Below, in pieces: positions 16,845-27,375 of a stretch of 64,000 nt of DNA (the stretch's first letter is position 1; each line of letters opens with the position of its first letter). The stretch lies in NCBI GenBank assembly GCA_026110335.1, contig GCA_026110335.1_3055.1. One strand, written 5' to 3'. A program made the translations under genes and the position numbers. The notes beneath the pieces are model-generated. The model saw nothing but the letters and a program-made list of their open reading frames with translations, ran no database searches and was not told the origin of the DNA. The DNA comes from a phage.

Positions 16845-19800
16845 ATGGCCGAGATTAAAAGAAAGTTCAGAGCAGAAGATGGTCTGGACGCAGGTGGTGA
16901 TAAAATAATCAACGTAGCTTTAGCTGATCGTACCGTAGGAACTGACGGTGTTAACGTTGATTACTTAATTCAAGAAAACACAGTTCAACAATATGATCCA
17001 ACTCGTGGATATTTAAAAGATTTTGTAATCATTTATGATAACCGCTTTTGGGCTGCTATAAATGATATTCCAAAACCAGCAGGAGCTTTTAATAGCGTAC
17101 GATGGAGAGCGTTACGTACCGATGCAAACTGGACAACTGTTTCATCAGGACCTTATCAATTAAAGTCAGGTGAATCAATTTCAGTTGATACTGCAGCTGG
17201 TAATGACATTACATTTACTTTACCATCTACCCCAATTGACGGTGATACTATCGTTCTCCAAGACATTGGAGGAAAACCTGGAGTTAACCAAGTTTTAATT
17301 ACAGCTCCAGTACAAAGCATTGTAAATTTTAGAGGTCAGCAAGTACGTTCAGTACTAATGACTCATCCAAAATCACAGATAGTTTTAATTTTTAGTAATC
17401 GTCTGTGGCAAATGTATGTCGCTGATTATAGTAGAGAAGCTGTAGTTGTAACGCCTGCGAGTCTCTATCAGGCGCAATCAAACGATTTTATCGTACGTAG
17501 ATTTACTTCTGCTGCACCAATTAATGTTAAACTTCCAAGATTTGCTAATCATGGCGATATTATTAATTTCGTCGATTTAGATAAACTAAATCCGCTTTAT
17601 CATACAATTGTTACTACATACGATGAAACGACTTCAATACAAGAAGTTGGAACTCATTCCATTGAAGGCCGTACAACGATTGACGGTTTCTTGATGTTTG
17701 ATGATAATGAGAAATTGTGGAGATTGTTTGACGGGGATAATAAAGCGCGTTTACGTATTATAACAACTAATTCCAATATTCGTCCAAATGAAGAAGTTAT
17801 GGTATTTGGTGCGAATAACGGAACAGCTCAGACAATTGAACTTCAGCTTCCGACTGATATTTCTGTTGGTGATACTGTTAAAATTTCCATGAATTACATG
17901 AGAAAAGGACAAACAGTTAAAATCAAAGCTGCCGGTGAAGATAAAATTGCTTCTTCAGTTCAATTGCTGCAATTCCCAAAACGTTCAGAATATCCGCCTG
18001 AAACTAAATGGGTGACTGTTCAAGAATTAGTTTTTAACGGTGAAACTAATTATGTTCCAGTTTTGGAGCTTGCTTATATAGAAGATTCTGATGGAAAATA
18101 CTGGGTTGTACAACAAAACGTTCCAACCGTAGAAAGAGTAGATTCTTTAAATGATTCTACTAGAGCAAGATTAGGCGTAATTGCTTTAGCTACACAAGCT
18201 CAAGCTAATGTCGATTTAGAAAATTCTCCACAAAAAGAATTAGCAATTACTCCAGAAACGTTAGCTAATCGTACTGCTACTGAAACTCGTAGAGGTATCG
18301 CAAGAATAGCAACTACTGCTCAAGTTAACCAGGATACTACATTCTCTTTTGCTGATGATATTATCATCACTCCTAAAAAGCTGAATGAAAGAACAGCTAC
18401 TGAAACTCGCAGAGGTGTTGCTGAAATTGCTACGCAGCAAGAAACTAATGCAGGTACTGATGATACTACAATCATTACTCCTAAAAAGCTTCAAGCTCGT
18501 CAAGGTTCTGAATCATTATCTGGTATTGTAACTTTTGTATCTACTGCAGGTGCTACTCCAGCTTCTAGCCGTGAATTAAATGGTACGAATGTTTACAATA
18601 AAAACACTAATAATTTAGTTGTTTCGCCTAAAGCTTTGGATCAGTATAAAGCTACTCCAACACAGCAAGGTGCAGTAATTTTAGCAGTTGAAAGTGAAGT
18701 AATTGCTGGACAAAGTCAGCAAGGATGGGCAAATGCTGTTGTAACGCCAGAAACGTTACATAAAAAGACATCAACTGATGCAAGAATTGGTTTAATTGAA
18801 ATTGCTACGCAAAGTGAAGTTAATACAGGAACTGATTATACACGTGCAGTCACTCCTAAAACTTTAAATGACCGTAGAGCAACTGAAAGTTTAAGTGGTA
18901 TAGCTGAAATTGCTACACAAGTTGAATTCGACGCAGGCGTCGACGATACTCGTATCTCTACACCATTAAAAATTAAAACCAGATTTAATAGTACTGATCG
19001 TACTTCTGTTGTTGCTCTATCTGGATTAGTTGAATCAGGAACTCTCTGGGACCATTATACACTTAATATTCTTGAAGCAAATGAGACACAGCGTGGTACA
19101 CTTCGTGTAGCTACACAGGTCGAAGCTGCTGCAGGAACATTAGATAATGTTTTAATAACTCCTAAAAAGCTTTTAGGTACTAAATCTACTGAAGCACAAG
19201 AAGGTGTTATTAAAGTTGCAACTCAGTCTGAAACTGTGACTGGAACATCAGCAAATACTGCTGTATCTCCAAAAAATTTAAAATGGATTGTGCAGAGTGA
19301 ACCTACTTGGGCAGCAACTACTCTGATAAGAGGTTTTGTTAAAACTTCGTCTGGTTCAATTACATTCGTTGGTAATGATACAGCCGGTTCTACCCAAGAT
19401 TTAGAACTGTATGAGAAAAATAACTATGCAGTATCACCATATGAATTAAACCGTGTATTAGCAAATTATTTGCCGTTAAAAGCAAAAGCTGCTGACGCAA
19501 ATTTATTAGATGGCCTAGATTCATCTCAGTTCATTCGTAGGGACATTGCACAGACGGTTAATGGTTCACTAACCTTAACCCAACAAACGAATCTGAGTGC
19601 CCCTCTTGTATCATCTAGTACTGCTACGTTTGGTGGTTCAGTTTCGGCAAATAGTGTACTAACTATTTCTAATACTGGAACGGCAACTCGTCTGATTTTT
19701 GAGAAAGGACCTCAAACTGGAACGAACCCGGCTCAAACGATGACAGTCAGCGTGTGGGGGAATCAATTTAGTGGGGAATCAAACACAACACGTTCTACCG

Positions 19801-20717
19801 TATTTGAAGTTGGTGATGAAACATCTTATCACTTTTATTCTCAACGTAATAAAGAAGACGGGAATATAGCGTTTAGCATTAATGGTACTGTAATGCCAAT
19901 AAACATTAATGCTTCCGGCTTGATGAATGTTAATGGCGTTGCAACATTTGGTCGTTCAGTTACAGCCAATGGTGAATTCATTAGCAAGTCTGCAAATGCA
20001 TTTAGAGCAATTAGTGGTGATTACGGATTCTTTATTCGTAATGATGCTGCTAATACCTATTTTATGCTCACCGCAGCTGGTGATCAGACCGGTGGATTTA
20101 ATGGATTACGTCCTTTAGCTATTAATAATGCATCCGGCCAAGTAACGATTGGTGAAAGCTTAATCATTGCCAAAGGTGCTACTATAAATTCAGGCGGTTT
20201 AACTGTTAACTCGAGAATTCGTTCCCAGGGTTCTAAAACTGCTGATTTATACACTCGTGCTCCTACTGCTGATACAGTCGGATTCTGGTCAATCGATATT
20301 AACGATTCAGCCACTTATAACCAGTTCCCGGGTTATTTTAAAATGGTTGAAAAAACTAATGAAGTGACTGGACTTCCATACTTAGAACGTGGTGAAGAGG
20401 TTAAATCTCCTGGTACACTGACTCAGTTTGGTAACACACTTGATTCGCTTTACCAAGATTGGATTACTTATCCAACAACACCAGAAGCGCGTACCACTCG
20501 TTGGACTCGCACATGGCAGAAAACCAAAAACTCTTGGTCAAGTTTTGTTCAGGTATTTGATGGAGGTAACCCTCCTCAACCGTCTGATATTGGTGCTTTA
20601 CCATCTGATAATGCTATAATGGGTAATCTTACTATTCGTGATTTCTTACGAATTGGTAATGTTCGCATTGTTCCTGACCCAGTGAATAAAACGGTTAAAT
20701 TTGAATGGGTTGAATAA
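16845..20717 (+). CDS. 34: long tail fibre proximal subunit gp34
   Basis: 1290 aa; repetitive fibre motifs (ATETRRG..., ITPKKL...); 34-35-36-37 synteny. Confidence 0.93.
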   Translation: MAEIKRKFRAEDGLDAGGDKIINVALADRTVGTDGVNVDYLIQENTVQQYDPTRGYLKDFVIIYDNRFWAAINDIPKPAGAFNSVRWRALRTDANWTTVSSGPYQLKSGESISVDTAAGNDITFTLPSTPIDGDTIVLQDIGGKPGVNQVLITAPVQSIVNFRGQQVRSVLMTHPKSQIVLIFSNRLWQMYVADYSREAVVVTPASLYQAQSNDFIVRRFTSAAPINVKLPRFANHGDIINFVDLDKLNPLYHTIVTTYDETTSIQEVGTHSIEGRTTIDGFLMFDDNEKLWRLFDGDNKARLRIITTNSNIRPNEEVMVFGANNGTAQTIELQLPTDISVGDTVKISMNYMRKGQTVKIKAAGEDKIASSVQLLQFPKRSEYPPETKWVTVQELVFNGETNYVPVLELAYIEDSDGKYWVVQQNVPTVERVDSLNDSTRARLGVIALATQAQANVDLENSPQKELAITPETLANRTATETRRGIARIATTAQVNQDTTFSFADDIIITPKKLNERTATETRRGVAEIATQQETNAGTDDTTIITPKKLQARQGSESLSGIVTFVSTAGATPASSRELNGTNVYNKNTNNLVVSPKALDQYKATPTQQGAVILAVESEVIAGQSQQGWANAVVTPETLHKKTSTDARIGLIEIATQSEVNTGTDYTRAVTPKTLNDRRATESLSGIAEIATQVEFDAGVDDTRISTPLKIKTRFNSTDRTSVVALSGLVESGTLWDHYTLNILEANETQRGTLRVATQVEAAAGTLDNVLITPKKLLGTKSTEAQEGVIKVATQSETVTGTSANTAVSPKNLKWIVQSEPTWAATTLIRGFVKTSSGSITFVGNDTAGSTQDLELYEKNNYAVSPYELNRVLANYLPLKAKAADANLLDGLDSSQFIRRDIAQTVNGSLTLTQQTNLSAPLVSSSTATFGGSVSANSVLTISNTGTATRLIFEKGPQTGTNPAQTMTVSVWGNQFSGESNTTRSTVFEVGDETSYHFYSQRNKEDGNIAFSINGTVMPININASGLMNVNGVATFGRSVTANGEFISKSANAFRAISGDYGFFIRNDAANTYFMLTAAGDQTGGFNGLRPLAINNASGQVTIGESLIIAKGATINSGGLTVNSRIRSQGSKTADLYTRAPTADTVGFWSIDINDSATYNQFPGYFKMVEKTNEVTGLPYLERGEEVKSPGTLTQFGNTLDSLYQDWITYPTTPEARTTRWTRTWQKTKNSWSSFVQVFDGGNPPQPSDIGALPSDNAIMGNLTIRDFLRIGNVRIVPDPVNKTVKFEWVE

Positions 20718-20725
20718 GAGGTATT

Positions 20726-21841
20726 ATGGAAAAATTTATGGCAAAGTTTGGACAAGGATATGTCCAAACGCCATTTTTATCGGAAAGTAATTCAGTAAGA
20801 TATAAAATAAGTATAGCGGGTTCTTGCCCGCTTTCTATAGCAGGACCATATGTCAAATTTCAGGATAATCCTATCGGAAGTCAAACATTTAACACAGGTC
20901 TTCATTTAAGAGTTTTTGACCCTTCTACGGGAGCATTAGTTGATAGTAAGTCATATGCTTTTTCGACTTCAAATGATACTACATCAGCTGCTTTTGTTAG
21001 TTTCATGAATTCTTTTTCAAACAACAGACTTGTTGCTATATTAACAAGTGGAAAGGTTAATTTTCCTCCTGAAGTAGTATCTTGGTTAAGAACAGCAGGA
21101 ACGTCTGCTTTTCCATCTGACTCTGTATTGTCAAGATTTGATGTATCATATGCTGCTTTTTACACTTCTTCTAAAAGAGCTATTGCATTAGAACATGTTA
21201 AACTGAGTAATAGAAAAAGCACAGATGATTATCAAACTATTTTAGATGTTGTATTTGACAGTTTAGAAGATGTTGGAGCTACCGGGTTTCCAAGAAGAAC
21301 GTATGAAAGTGTTGAGCAATTTATGTCAGCGGTTGGTGGAACTAATAACGAAATTGCACGTTTACCAACTTCATCCGCGATAAGTAAACTCTCTGATTAT
21401 AATTTAATTCCTGGCGATGTTCTTTATCTTAAAGCACAGCTATATGCTGATGCCGATTTACTTGCGCTTGGAACTACAAATATATCTATCCGTTTTTATG
21501 ATGAATCGAATGGATATATTTCTTCAACACATGCTGAGTTTACTGGACAAGCTGAGTCATGGGAATTAAAGGAAGATTATGTAGTTATTCCAGAAAATGC
21601 AGTAGGATTTACGATATATGCACAAAGAACTGCACAAGCAGGTCAAGGTGGCATGAGGAATTTAAGTTTTTCTGAAGTATCAAGAAATGGCGGAATTTCA
21701 AAACCTGCTGAATTTGGCGTCAATGGTATTCGCGTTAATTATGTCTGTGAATCTGCTTCACCTCCGGATATAATGGTACTTCCTACACAAGCATCGTCTA
21801 AAACTGGTAAAGTGTTTGGACAAGAATTTAGAGAAGTTTAA
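20726..21841 (+). CDS. 35: long tail fibre hinge protein gp35
   Basis: 371 aa; position and size. Confidence 0.85.
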   Translation: MEKFMAKFGQGYVQTPFLSESNSVRYKISIAGSCPLSIAGPYVKFQDNPIGSQTFNTGLHLRVFDPSTGALVDSKSYAFSTSNDTTSAAFVSFMNSFSNNRLVAILTSGKVNFPPEVVSWLRTAGTSAFPSDSVLSRFDVSYAAFYTSSKRAIALEHVKLSNRKSTDDYQTILDVVFDSLEDVGATGFPRRTYESVEQFMSAVGGTNNEIARLPTSSAISKLSDYNLIPGDVLYLKAQLYADADLLALGTTNISIRFYDESNGYISSTHAEFTGQAESWELKEDYVVIPENAVGFTIYAQRTAQAGQGGMRNLSFSEVSRNGGISKPAEFGVNGIRVNYVCESASPPDIMVLPTQASSKTGKVFGQEFREV

Positions 21842-21903: not shown

Positions 21904-22560
21904 ATGGCTGATTTAAAAGTAGGTTCAACAACTGGAGGCTCTGTCATTTGGCATCAAGGAAATTTTCCATTGAATCCAGCCGGTGACGATGTACTCTATA
22001 AATCATTTAAAATATATTCAGAATACAATAAACCGCAAGCTGCTGATAACGATTTTGTTTCTAAAGCTAATGGTGGTACTTATTTAAATAAAGTAATTTT
22101 TAATAAAGGAATGACTGTTCCTGGCGCAGGGTCAGGCGATAACGGTATTTTTGCTGGTCCTGGTGATAGTGCCACGTATGATACTACAAATATGGATATT
22201 GTTTCGTGGTATGGTATTGGTTTTAAATCATCACAAGGAACAGCAGGTAGAACTGTAGTAATTAACACACGAAATGGAGATATTAGCTCAAAGGGCGTAA
22301 TTGAAGCATCACAAATCCGTGTAACTTCGTTATCACCAGTAAATAATTATGACCTTACGCGGAAAGATTATGTTGATGGAGCAATAAATATTGTTACAGC
22401 AAACGCAAACTCTAGGGTATTACGCTCTGGAGATACTATGACAGGAAATTTAACTGCGCCAAACCTTTTTTCACAGAATCCTGCATCTCAACCCTCGCAT
22501 GTTCCACGATTTGATCAAATTGTTATTAAGGATTCTGTTCAAGATTTCGGCTATTATTAA
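21904..22560 (+). CDS. 36: long tail fibre distal connector gp36
   Basis: 218 aa; position and size. Confidence 0.85.
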   Translation: MADLKVGSTTGGSVIWHQGNFPLNPAGDDVLYKSFKIYSEYNKPQAADNDFVSKANGGTYLNKVIFNKGMTVPGAGSGDNGIFAGPGDSATYDTTNMDIVSWYGIGFKSSQGTAGRTVVINTRNGDISSKGVIEASQIRVTSLSPVNNYDLTRKDYVDGAINIVTANANSRVLRSGDTMTGNLTAPNLFSQNPASQPSHVPRFDQIVIKDSVQDFGYY

Positions 22561-22568
22561 GAGGACTT

Positions 22569-25500
22569 ATGGCTACTTTAAAACAAATACAATTTAAAAG
22601 AAGCAAAACTGCAGGAGCACGTCCTGCCGCTTCAGTATTAGCCGAAGGTGAATTGGCTATAAACTTAAAAGACCGCGTACTTTTTACTAAAGATGACCAA
22701 GGAAATATTATTGATCTGGGTTTTGCTAAAGGCGGTAGTATTGACGGGAATGTTATTCATACAGGTAATTATAACCAAACCGGCGATTATACTTTAAATG
22801 GCACCTTCACTCAGACAGGTAATTTTAATTTAACTGGTATTGCTCGAGTAACTCGCGATATTATTGCCGCTGGGCAGATTATGACTGAGGGCGGAGAACT
22901 TATTACAAAAAGCTCAGGTACAGCGCATGTTCGTTTTTTCGATAACAATAGCCGCGAACGTGGAATCATTTATACCCCGGCCAATGATGGTTTAACTACA
23001 CAAGTACTTAATATCAGGGTTCAAGACTACGCCGCTGGTGATGAAAGCACCTATGCATTTTCGGGCAGTGGCCTATTTACTTCACCTGAAGTATCAGCAT
23101 GGAAATCTATTTCGTCTCCACAAATTCTGACCAACAAAGTCATTACAAATGGGAAGAAGACCGGCGATTATGACATTTATTCATTATCAAATAACACTCC
23201 AATGGCAGAAGGCGAAACGGCTATTAACCACCTCCGTGTTATGCGAAATGCTGTAGGAGCAGGTATTTTCCACGAAGTTAATGTTAATGACGGAATAACC
23301 TGGTATTCCGGAGATGGCTTAGACACTTATCTTTGGTCGTTTAACTGGGCCGGTGGATTGAAAGCAGGCCATTCTATTTCTATAGGTCTTCCGGGTGGCT
23401 CTAAAGGATATTCTGAATTAGGGACTGCCTCAATTGTTCTTGGGGATAATGATACCGGATTTAAATGGCATCAGGACGGATATTATTTCAGCGTTAATAA
23501 TGGAACAAAAACGTTTTTATTTAGTCCCAGCGAAACAACTAGCCTAAGAAAATTTGTAGCTGGATATTCTACTAACGGAACCGATTTAACTACTCCTCCA
23601 ACTGAAAACTATGCTTTGGCCACTGTTGTTACTTACCATGATAATAACGCGTTTGGAGACGGTCAGACTCTTTTAGGATATTATCAAGGTGGTAATTATC
23701 ATCATTATTTCCGCGGTAAGGGTACTACAAACATTAATACTCACGGTGGTTTGTTAGTTACTCCTGGTAATATTGACGTTATTGGTGGTTCTGTTAATAT
23801 TGATGGTCGTAATAATTCTTCTACGCTGTTGTTTAGAGGTAACACGACCGGAGCTAGTTCAGTTGATAATATGACAATTTCCGTTTGGGGCAATACGTTT
23901 ACTAATCCTAGTGTAGGTAATCGTAAAAACGTCATGGAAATTTCTGACGCAACTAGTTGGATGAGCTATATTCAAAGACTTACAACAGGTGAAGTAGAAA
24001 TGAACGTTAACGGTTCATTTGAATCATCTGGTGTTACTGCTGGAAATAGAGGAGTTCACACAACAGGCGAAATTTCATCTGGAGCAGTGAATGCGCTTCG
24101 TATTTGGAATGCAGATTATGGAGCTATTTTTAGACGTTCAGAAGGTAGTCTTCATATTATTCCAACTGCTTACGGTGAAGGTAAACATGGTGATATCGGT
24201 CCACTTCGCCCGTTTAGTATGGCTTTAGATACCGGTAAAGTTACTATTCCAGATTTACAATCAAGTTACAATACGTTTGCTGCTAACGGTTATATTAAAT
24301 TTGCTGGTCATGGAGCGGGTGCCGGCGGTTATGCTATTCAATATGTTCAAGCAGCTCCTATTTTCCAGGAAATCGATGATGATGCTGTAAGCAAATATTA
24401 TCCTATTGTTAAACAGAAGTTTTTAAACGGTAAAGCTGTCTGGTCTTTAGGTACTGAAATTAATTCGGGTACATTCGTTATTCATCATCTGAAAGAAGAT
24501 GGTTCACAAGGCCATACGTCTCGTTTTAATCAAGACGGTACTGTTAACTTCCCAGATAACGTTGCTGTCGGCGGCGGTGAAGCTACTATTGCTCGTAATG
24601 GTAACATCTGGTCTGATATCTGGAAAACGTTTACTTCAGCTGGTGACGTAACTAATATTCGCGATGCTATTGCTACTCGCGTTGCCAAAGAAGGCGACAC
24701 GATGACAGGCCGTTTAACTCTTAATGCCAACTCGGATGCTATTATTATTAACAGTGCTGCAACCGAATCTTGTTATGTGAAAGGACAAAAAGCGGGCGTT
24801 AATAACTGGTATGTTGGTAATGGTGGGGCTGATAATGCCATATCGTTTTATAGTTTCCGAAATAATTCAGGCATAATTGTTAATAATGGTGGCGATATTG
24901 CTTTAAACCCAGAAGGGTCAGCCACTTTTAATTTTAATAGGGACCGACTTTTTATTAATGGCTCTGTCTGGACCAGTCACCAGGCCGGCGATTGGGGAAA
25001 TCAATGGCGCCAGGAAGCTCCGATATTTGTGGATTTTGGCTACGTCGGTAATGATAGTTATTATCCAATTATCAAAGGAAAATCTGTTATTACGAATGAA
25101 GGATACGTATCTGGTGTTGATTTCGGTATGCGCCGTATCACTAATACTTGGGCACAAGGTATTATCCGTGTAGGTAATCAGGAAAACGGTTCCAGCCCAC
25201 AAGCTATCTATGAATTTCACCACAATGGAGTTATGTATGTTCCTGACATGGTTAAAACTGGAGCAAGATTATCAGCTGGCGGTGGTGACCCGGTGTGGAC
25301 TGGACCATGTCTTGTTATTGGTGATAATGATACCGGATTAGTTCATGGTGGTGACGGTCGTATTAACATGGTTGCAAATGGAATGCATATTGCTTCATGG
25401 TCGTCCGCTTACCATCTCCATGAAGGTCTTTGGGATACCACTGGTGCTTTGTGGACTGAACATGGAAGAGCTATTATTTCTTTTGGTCATTTAATCCAAC

Positions 25501-25880
25501 AAAGCGATGCCTATTCTACATATGTTCGAGATGTTTATGTCCGTTCGGATATTCGTGTTAAAAAAGACCTTGTTAAATTTGAAAATGCTTCTCAGAAGCT
25601 TTCTAAAATTAACGGTTACACTTATATGCAGAAGCGAGGCCTAGATGAAGAAGGCAATCAGAAATGGGAACCTAACGCCGGTTTAATTGCTCAAGAAGTT
25701 CAAGCTATTTTACCAGAATTAGTTGAAGGTGACCCTGATGGCGAAGCTTTACTTCGTTTGAACTATAACGGTGTAATTGGTTTAAATACAGCTGCAATCA
25801 ATGAGCATACTGCAGAAATTGCAGAACTTAAATCAGAAATCGAAGAACTTAAAGCATTAGTTAAATCATTGTTAAAATAA
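22569..25880 (+). CDS. 37: long tail fibre distal subunit gp37 with C-terminal intramolecular chaperone-like domain
   Basis: 1103 aa; conserved N-terminus; C-terminal about 110 aa (SDIRVKKDL...) resembles the self-cleaving chaperone domains of endosialidase-type fibres. Confidence 0.9.
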
Positions 25881-25911
25881 TAAGAGGGGCTTCGGCCCCT
25901 TGGAGGTTTAT

Positions 25912-26688
25912 ATGGCAGTAACAGGACCATGGGTAGGATCGTCTGCAGTAGTTAATACAGGACAAAATTGGATGGGTGGCGCGGCCCAACGATTAAGAAT
26001 GGGTGCTCCATTTTGGATGAGTAATATGATAGGTCGATCTGTTGAAATAATTCACACGCTTGGAGCAGACCATAACTTCAATGGTCAATGGTTCCGAGAT
26101 AGATGTTTTGAGGCAGGTAGTGCACCTATAGTGTTTAATATCACTGGAGATTTAGTATCATATTCTAAAGATGTTCCTTTATTCTTCATGTACGGAGATA
26201 CACCGAATGAATATGTTCAACTGAATATACATGGTGTAACGATGTATGGCCGTGGCGGGAATGGCGGTAGCAATGGTCCTGGCTCAGCTGGAGGTCATTG
26301 TATTCAAAACGATATTGGTGGGAGACTAAGAATTAATAATGGCGGAGCTATCGCAGGCGGTGGCGGTGGTGGCGGTGGTGGGTATTATTCTCCTACGAAA
26401 CCAATGAAATTAACCTTTGGTGGTGGTGGCGGTCGTCCGTTTGGTGCTGCTGGTGGATCTGCCAACATGCAATCAGGCGCAACTGCTGGTACTCTTTATG
26501 CGCCTGGTTCGGGGTCTGTAAACGGTGTCTACAATGGCGGAAACGGTGGCGAAGTTGGCTCCGCAGGAGGTAGATGTAATATTCGTGGTCAAGGATCTGA
26601 ACATAATGGCGGAGCTGCTGGTTATGCCGTCATAGGGTCTACACCGACATGGCAAAACGTTGGAGCAATATATGGTCCAAGAGTATAA
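25912..26688 (+). CDS. 38: gp38 receptor-recognising adhesin, T2-type (glycine-rich)
   Basis: 258 aa from ATG with GGAGG RBS; conserved N-terminal region and multiple poly-glycine motifs typical of T2-like gp38. Confidence 0.85.
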
Positions 26689-26718: not shown

Positions 26719-27375
26719 ATGGCAGCACCTAGAATATCATTTTCGCCCTCTGATATTCTGTTGGGTGTTCTAGATCGCTTGTTCAAAGATAACGCTACCG
26801 GGAAGGTTCTTGCTTCCCGGGTAGCTGTCGTAATTCTTTTATTTATGATGGCGATTGTTTGGTATAGGGGAGATAGTTTCTTTGAGTACTATAAGCAATC
26901 AAAGTATGAAACATACCGTGAAATTGTTGAAAAGGAAAGAACTGCACGCTTTGAATCTGTCGCCCTGGAACAACTCCAGATAGTTCATATATCATCTGAG
27001 GCAGACTTTAGTGCGGTGTATTCTTTCCGCCCTAAAAACTTAAACTATTTTGTTGATATTATAGCATACGAAGGAAAATTACCTTCGACAATAAGTGAAA
27101 AATCACTTGGAGGATATCCTGTTGATAAAACTATGGATGAATATGCAGTCCATTTAAATGGACGTCATTATTATTCTAACTCAAAATTTGCTTTTTTACC
27201 AACTAAAAAGCCTACTCCCGAAATAAACTACATGTATAGTTGTCCATATTTTAATTTGGATAATATCTATGCTGGAACGATAACCATGTACTGGTATAGA
27301 AATGATCATATAAGTAATGACCGCCTTGAATCAATATGTGCTCAGGCGGCCAGAATATTAGGAAGGGCTAAATAA
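26719..27375 (+). CDS. t: holin
   Basis: 218 aa; single N-terminal TM segment and large C-terminal domain; position after gene 38. Confidence 0.9.
   Translation: MAAPRISFSPSDILLGVLDRLFKDNATGKVLASRVAVVILLFMMAIVWYRGDSFFEYYKQSKYETYREIVEKERTARFESVALEQLQIVHISSEADFSAVYSFRPKNLNYFVDIIAYEGKLPSTISEKSLGGYPVDKTMDEYAVHLNGRHYYSNSKFAFLPTKKPTPEINYMYSCPYFNLDNIYAGTITMYWYRNDHISNDRLESICAQAARILGRAK

Follow-up and report, generated by a model that had tools for sequence, protein, structure and literature searches.

A predicted self-cleaving chaperone domain at the end of the long tail fiber subunit gp37 of a T-even-like phage, and the adhesin-type gene 38 beside it

The stretch of DNA analyzed here, 64,000 nucleotides in length and called the window below, is a segment of a T-even (Tequatrovirus-like) phage. 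As judged by homology, the last 111 residues of its long tail fiber distal subunit, gp37, are an intramolecular chaperone domain of the peptidase S74, or endosialidase, type. The explanation that best accounts for the findings as a whole, to which we assign a probability of roughly 90%, is that this chaperone domain would cleave itself from gp37 and that the fiber would then be capped by gp38. The gene that follows, gene 38, encodes an adhesin of the T2/S16 type.

The terminal domain of gp37 and its locus

Gene 37 occupies positions 22569..25880 of the plus strand and is an ORF of 1103 codons encoding a precursor of 118.9 kDa. The protein has Pfam matches to Gp34_trimer, gp37_trimer, and Peptidase_S74, and its GenBank relatives are annotated as the long tail fiber distal subunit. 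The C-terminal chaperone domain runs from Ser993 to Lys1103 (25545..25877, plus strand; 111 residues, 12.3 kDa) and is predicted to be released after trimerization. The interval 25545-25880 had been flagged by the first-pass annotation, and both its coordinates and the residue strings quoted for the gp37 end are exact to the base. Since the codon of Ser993 (TCG) lies at 25545-25547 and the TAA stop at 25878-25880, the interval takes in exactly the 111 codons of the domain and the stop.

The first-pass annotation had likened this end to the chaperone domains of endosialidases and T5-type fibers and had proposed a profile search against peptidase S74, and the likeness was borne out by that search. 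The Pfam family PF13884 (Peptidase_S74, "Chaperone of endosialidase") matches gp37 residues 993-1052 with an E-value of 2.3e-12 and 47.5 bits, as compared to a gathering cut-off of 22 bits, and the match spans profile positions 1-57 of 58. When the C-terminal 226 residues of gp37 were compared with solved structures, the nearest relative proved to be the S16 gp37 construct PDB 6F45_A, matched with an E-value of 1.1e-43. This alignment starts 79 residues upstream of Ser993 (at query residue 37, Ser993 being query residue 116), contains one 12-residue gap, and extends from the tip across the cleavage motif to the end of the terminal domain. With a profile made from 17 relatives, matches were also obtained to the ICA domain of MyRF, 7DC3 (E=2.4e-4), and to another tail fiber, 8JOV (E=0.02). 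In the 7DC3 match, the serine of the gp37 family is paired with an alanine and the lysine with a lysine; the alanine is presumably an engineered substitution.

By tblastn, relatives were found in 1661 phage records. Nearly all of the PHROG profiles that match the domain are annotated as tail, fiber, or baseplate proteins and, with one exception, the matches sit at the C-terminal ends of the profiles or no more than a few residues away. The same position is seen in the window, where the domain reaches the stop codon and the upstream Pfam matches are fiber trimerization domains, and in 75 of 80 related loci, where the stop lies 0-3 codons past the domain match. Within the domain, the core motif G1038-L-I-A-Q1042 (25680..25694, plus strand) is conserved, with the Gly, Ala, and Gln invariant among the window, S16, T2, T5-like, and K1F proteins as well as in the alignment of the 17 relatives.

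The end of gp37, which had been described at first pass as a coiled-coil, was modeled by AlphaFold as one long helix comprising residues 1066-1102 (25764..25874, plus strand; model residues 94-130, pLDDT about 90-92). This helix is presumed to be the part of the chaperone that forms a trimeric helical bundle, the trimeric state being that of the family. The model represents one chain of what is an obligate trimer and has a mean pLDDT of 64.7. Because the tip, made up of the first 30 residues, falls below 50, the model was not used for any structural conclusion on the docking surface. Taken together, the gp37 domain shows the profile match, the Ser-Lys dyad, and the C-terminal position of the S74 chaperone family; its fold may be like that of the solved chaperone domains 3GW6, 4UW8, 3GUD, and 7DC3, for which the indication is weak.

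Upstream of gene 37, Pfam matches place the other fiber genes on the same strand: g34 (16845-20717), g35 (20726-21841), and g36 (21904-22560). Downstream, g38 is followed by the t holin gene (26719-27375, plus strand) and then by asiA and motA on the opposite strand. Outside this locus, a region of 20 kb shares about 94-95% identity with known Tequatrovirus genomes. For the g37-g38 pair, the best overall identity among GenBank phages is 91% (vB-Eco-KMB40). Over its last 480 bases, g37 has 96-98% DNA identity to a different set of phages, PP01, AR1, RB27, and others (98% to Maryam, T4_ev151, PP01, and AR1), and the terminal domain of the protein is 96-99% identical to those of many sequenced phages. 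The only exact copy of gp37 on record lies on an SRA-derived contig (SRR22245981), which carries the same gene calls across the fiber locus. The g37-g38 pair (22569-26688) is mosaic, and the gp37 allele of the window is a new mosaic.

Two further observations concern this locus. Residues 58-127 of the hinge protein gp35 match PF15711 (ILEI, interleukin-like EMT inducer/FAM3) above the cut-off (E=8e-8), and the same match is precomputed for the copy of gp35 on the SRA contig. A "GG domain" common to gp35 and to FAM3, POMGnT1, and KIAA1199 has reportedly been described before, and the ILEI match is thus probably known. In addition, three 170-residue entries named "tail fiber domain-containing protein [Escherichia coli]" are 98-100% identical to the window domain. 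Their contigs measure about 166-167 kb and resemble complete genomes of T-even phages submitted as E. coli assemblies, in which gp37 would be either truncated at the end of the contig or annotated from an internal start alone.

The Ser-Lys dyad and the predicted cleavage site

Alignment of the window protein with S16 gp37, T2 gp37, a T5-like L-shaped fiber, and K1F endosialidase revealed six invariant columns, which include Ser993 and Lys998. Ser993 (TCG, 25545..25547, plus strand) is the predicted nucleophile, and the serine that the first-pass annotation had singled out at this codon does indeed align with those of S16, T2, the T5-like fiber, and K1F (Ser911). Lys998 (25560..25562, plus strand), five residues further on, is the predicted general base of the dyad and aligns with Lys916 of K1F and with the MyRF lysine. 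The K1F equivalents, Ser911 and Lys916, were assigned by direct residue count. In the endosialidase, these two are reportedly the serine at which cleavage occurs and the lysine that acts with it (Schulz et al. 2010).

By homology, the scissile bond would be R992|S993, within the motif DVYVR^SDIRVKK. Cleavage at this bond is predicted to yield a mature gp37 of 992 residues and 106.6 kDa and a 12.3-kDa fragment. The segment D988-V-Y-V-R992 (25530..25544, plus strand) would then become the new C-terminus of mature gp37. In the alignment, its counterparts are DLNVS in S16 and DVYIR in the fPS phages, and it is predicted to be the last beta-strand of the tip and the place where gp38 docks.

To gauge conservation, we used 80 related viral contigs, which comprise 53 distinct sequences and had been collected with search patterns from which the dyad was excluded. 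Among the related fiber ends, the lysine is kept in 81 of 81 and the serine in 80 of 81; in the tip motif, the equivalent of D988 is kept in 75 of 81 and that of R992 in 77 of 81. The lone serine exception (IMGVR_UViG_2974741249_000001, 155,101 bases) has a reading frame with an interruption shortly before the cleavage serine, which reflects either a sequencing frameshift or a truly disrupted gp37 end. In this phage (vB_EcoM_005, the name on entry P0012), the annotated chaperone part is only a 65-residue "tail fiber protein" fragment.

Gene 38 and assembly of the fiber tip

Gene 38 (25912..26688, plus strand) encodes a 258-residue protein from its ATG and matches PF21721 (Gp38_N, E=1.8e-21), PF05268 (GP38, E=3.3e-72), and phrog_2056 ("tail fiber protein; host specificity", E=1e-109). 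The start was placed at ATG 25912 because the Gp38_N profile then aligns from its first position to residue 1 of the product, and a GGAGG lies five bases before this ATG; the gene call in the SRA contig has the same start. The TTG at 25900, given in the mechanical ORF list, lies inside the hairpin and ribosome-binding region and was not used. Residues 1-40 form the N-terminal attachment domain with Trp7, Trp20, and Trp35, and glycine-rich motifs follow. The three tryptophans are invariant with S16 and T2 gp38, to which the window protein is 52% and 51% identical, respectively, and the poly-Gly motifs are conserved. A T4-type layout, in which gp38 is a pure chaperone and gp37 the adhesin, was rejected because gp38 matches adhesin families. 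In sequence, then, each feature of a T2/S16-type fiber tip that could be looked for is in place, namely an adhesin-type gene 38, the three tryptophans, and a gp37 tip homologous to 6F45.

Between the two genes lies a stable hairpin predicted by RNA folding, GAGGGGC-UUCG-GCCCCUU (25884..25901, core 25886-25899, plus strand), directly followed by the GGAGG Shine-Dalgarno sequence of g38 (25902-25906, plus strand). Hairpins occupy the same place in T2 (GAGGGC-UUCG-GCCCUC) and S16 (GAGCC-UACG-GGCUC), and these counterparts indicate that the stem is kept through compensatory changes while the loop stays UNCG. A role as a terminator between g37 and g38 was rejected: there is no T-run, the ribosome-binding site of g38 follows, and the z-score is only -1.9. 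The hairpin was treated as an intercistronic UNCG hairpin that is part of the locus and lies outside the chaperone domain. It is probably a classic T4-type intercistronic C(UUCG)G hairpin of the kind reportedly described by Tuerk et al. 1988.

The association of the two genes extends to the relatives. When the window gp38 was used as a tblastn query, a gp38-like N-terminal domain was found immediately downstream of the chaperone stop in 73 of 80 related loci; in the subfamily closest to the window, the two travel together. In 49 of the 80 loci only the first ∼44 residues of gp38 (Gp38_N) match, with unrelated C-terminal domains behind them, and many of these 49 lie on contigs of 30-110 kb that are not T-even. 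This distribution suggests that the combination of a chaperone-ended fiber with a Gp38_N-headed cap is employed as a module far outside the T-even phages.

The first-pass annotation had gone further and read the chaperone domain as implying a T2-like route in which the processed tip of gp37 binds gp38. The route itself is supported, as gene 38 is an adhesin of the T2/S16 type. The domain does not carry that implication by itself: T5 and the endosialidases possess it without any cap, and in fD1 a gp37 with such an end is described as the likely receptor binder; it is the identity of gene 38, not the chaperone domain, that points to the route.

By analogy with S16, T2/T6, the endosialidases, and T5, assembly of the tip would most likely proceed as follows. 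The chaperone domains would bring three gp37 chains into register, with their long C-terminal helices forming a bundle, and this alignment would nucleate folding of the trimeric beta-helical tip. Following trimerization, Ser993, activated by Lys998, would attack the Arg992-Ser993 bond so that every chain cuts itself. The 12.3-kDa fragments would then depart, leaving mature gp37 ending in ...DVYVR. The exposed three-fold tip would take up a single copy of gp38 through W7, W20, and W35 of the N-terminal helical domain, and receptor specificity would from then on be set by gp38.

Three other explanations bear on this scheme. The Ser-Lys dyad might not be what removes the module for chaperoning and trimerization, and a separate protease of phage or host origin might do so instead; this would be compatible with PMC3157838, where gp37 of T2 and T6 is only "proteolytically cleaved", Drexler et al. 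1986 is cited, and no protease is named. We consider this very unlikely, given that the dyad is conserved, that the S74 family is defined as self-cleaving, and that the recombinant S16 homologue, 52% identical, is reported to autocleave (PMC7917993). Just as little credence can be given to retention of the domain in the virion, either uncleaved or cleaved but still bound, with gp38 binding elsewhere or only transiently. Some members of the S74 family do lose their catalytic residues, and release is not proven by anything in the sequence; in the window, however, both catalytic residues are intact and the tip motif D-V-Y-V-R is conserved. Moreover, S16 gp38 is reported to be docked on the base of the C-terminal interdigitated domain of gp37 (PMC6851490), a surface that is described as exposed only once the chaperone has been cleaved off (PMC7917993).

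The remaining alternative, that the similarity is due to chance or to low complexity of a coiled-coil and that there is no chaperone domain at all, takes its appeal from the heptad-like C-terminal helix, as such segments can draw spurious matches. It is effectively refuted by the Pfam and 6F45_A E-values and by the alignment across several families, and we regard it as the least probable of the three by far. The preferred reading is thus still that of an S74 chaperone domain that would release itself and give way to gp38. A bolder version of it, which we put forward as speculation and think rather unlikely, is that release and docking are a coupled hand-over, with Gp38_N recognizing the cleaved chaperone trimer on the three-fold surface common to both and perhaps displacing it. 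If this were true, the pairing of a chaperone-ended fiber with a Gp38_N-headed cap would be a general plug-in platform extending well beyond the T-even phages.

Significance and comparison with known systems

The feature as such is already known, and Pfam annotates it automatically. Processing of T2 gp37 was reportedly described by Drexler, Riede and Henning 1986 (J Mol Biol 191:267), the structure of the family, that of the K1F endosialidase chaperone domain (PDB 3GW6), is said to come from Schulz et al. 2010 (NSMB 17:210), and the S16 gp37-gp38 complex (PDB 6F45) is reportedly that of Dunne et al. 2018 (Structure 26:1573). The value of the present assignment therefore lies in practical annotation knowledge rather than in discovery. 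The domain fixes the predicted true end of the mature fiber, Arg992, as well as the surface that would seat gp38, the determinant of host range. For swaps of the gp37 tip or the gp38 adhesin, or for recombinant expression of the fiber, the chaperone domain and its Ser-Lys dyad should be kept intact, and in host-range engineering the tip must match the N-terminal subtype of gp38.

Phage S16 offers an extensive parallel. It shares with the window the gene order g37, g38, t holin, asiA, 52% identity over the aligned 131-residue C-terminal segment that contains the domain, the common cleavage motif xxxV[SR]^SD[IR]R[VI]KKD, and a gp38 that, at the identity given above, has the same three tryptophans and glycine-rich motifs. 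The gp37 of S16 is reported to autocleave between the two serines of DLNVS^SDRRIKK, exposing the docking surface for gp38, and its chaperone domain is given as the last 113 residues (PMC7917993); counted from the second serine, we find 112. In the crystal structure, three conserved tryptophans of S16 gp38 are reported to enter three symmetry-equivalent pockets on the base of gp37 (PMC6851490). The two phages differ in the residue before the scissile bond (Arg in the window, Ser in S16), in the tip (DVYVR versus DLNVS), in the gp37 shaft, and in the host genus, which is presumably Escherichia for the window and is Salmonella for S16. For the fPS phages, cleavage has been predicted after DVYIR (PMC7917993).

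T2 resembles the window in architecture and assembly logic. The gp37 proteins of T2 and T6 are reported to be cleaved and then capped by gp38 (PMC3157838, Trojet et al. 2011). The corresponding motif, NVYIR^SDIRLKS, is found at residue 1243 of T2 gp37, and its gp38, 51% identical, has the same tryptophans. The chaperone subtype is different, with 33% identity over the aligned 131-residue segment and a tail of 99 residues versus 111 in the window. The processing of T2 gp37 reportedly removes about 120 residues, as compared to the 99 counted for its domain from the sequence. It is PP01, AR1, and RB27 that share the chaperone subtype of the window, at 96-98% DNA identity.

More distant systems carry a domain of the same type in other settings. 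The K1F endosialidase (endoNF, MEROPS S74, PDB 3GW6) is only 18% identical over the aligned 131-residue segment; its domain, 154 residues in length, contains a long insertion ahead of the final helix, and its parent protein is a tailspike enzyme with no adhesin cap. The L-shaped fiber of phage T5 (pb1, PDB 4UW8) likewise possesses the chaperone domain and no gp38-like cap. In T5, the mature fiber tip itself binds the receptor. The MyRF ICA domain (PDB 7DC3) belongs to a eukaryotic membrane-tethered transcription factor, and its cleavage releases a DNA-binding trimer rather than a fiber. Phage fD1 has the same kind of gp37 end, yet gp37 itself is the likely receptor binder, and Gp255, the product of a downstream fiber-locus gene that is called an assembly chaperone, is absent from the particles (PMC8309999).
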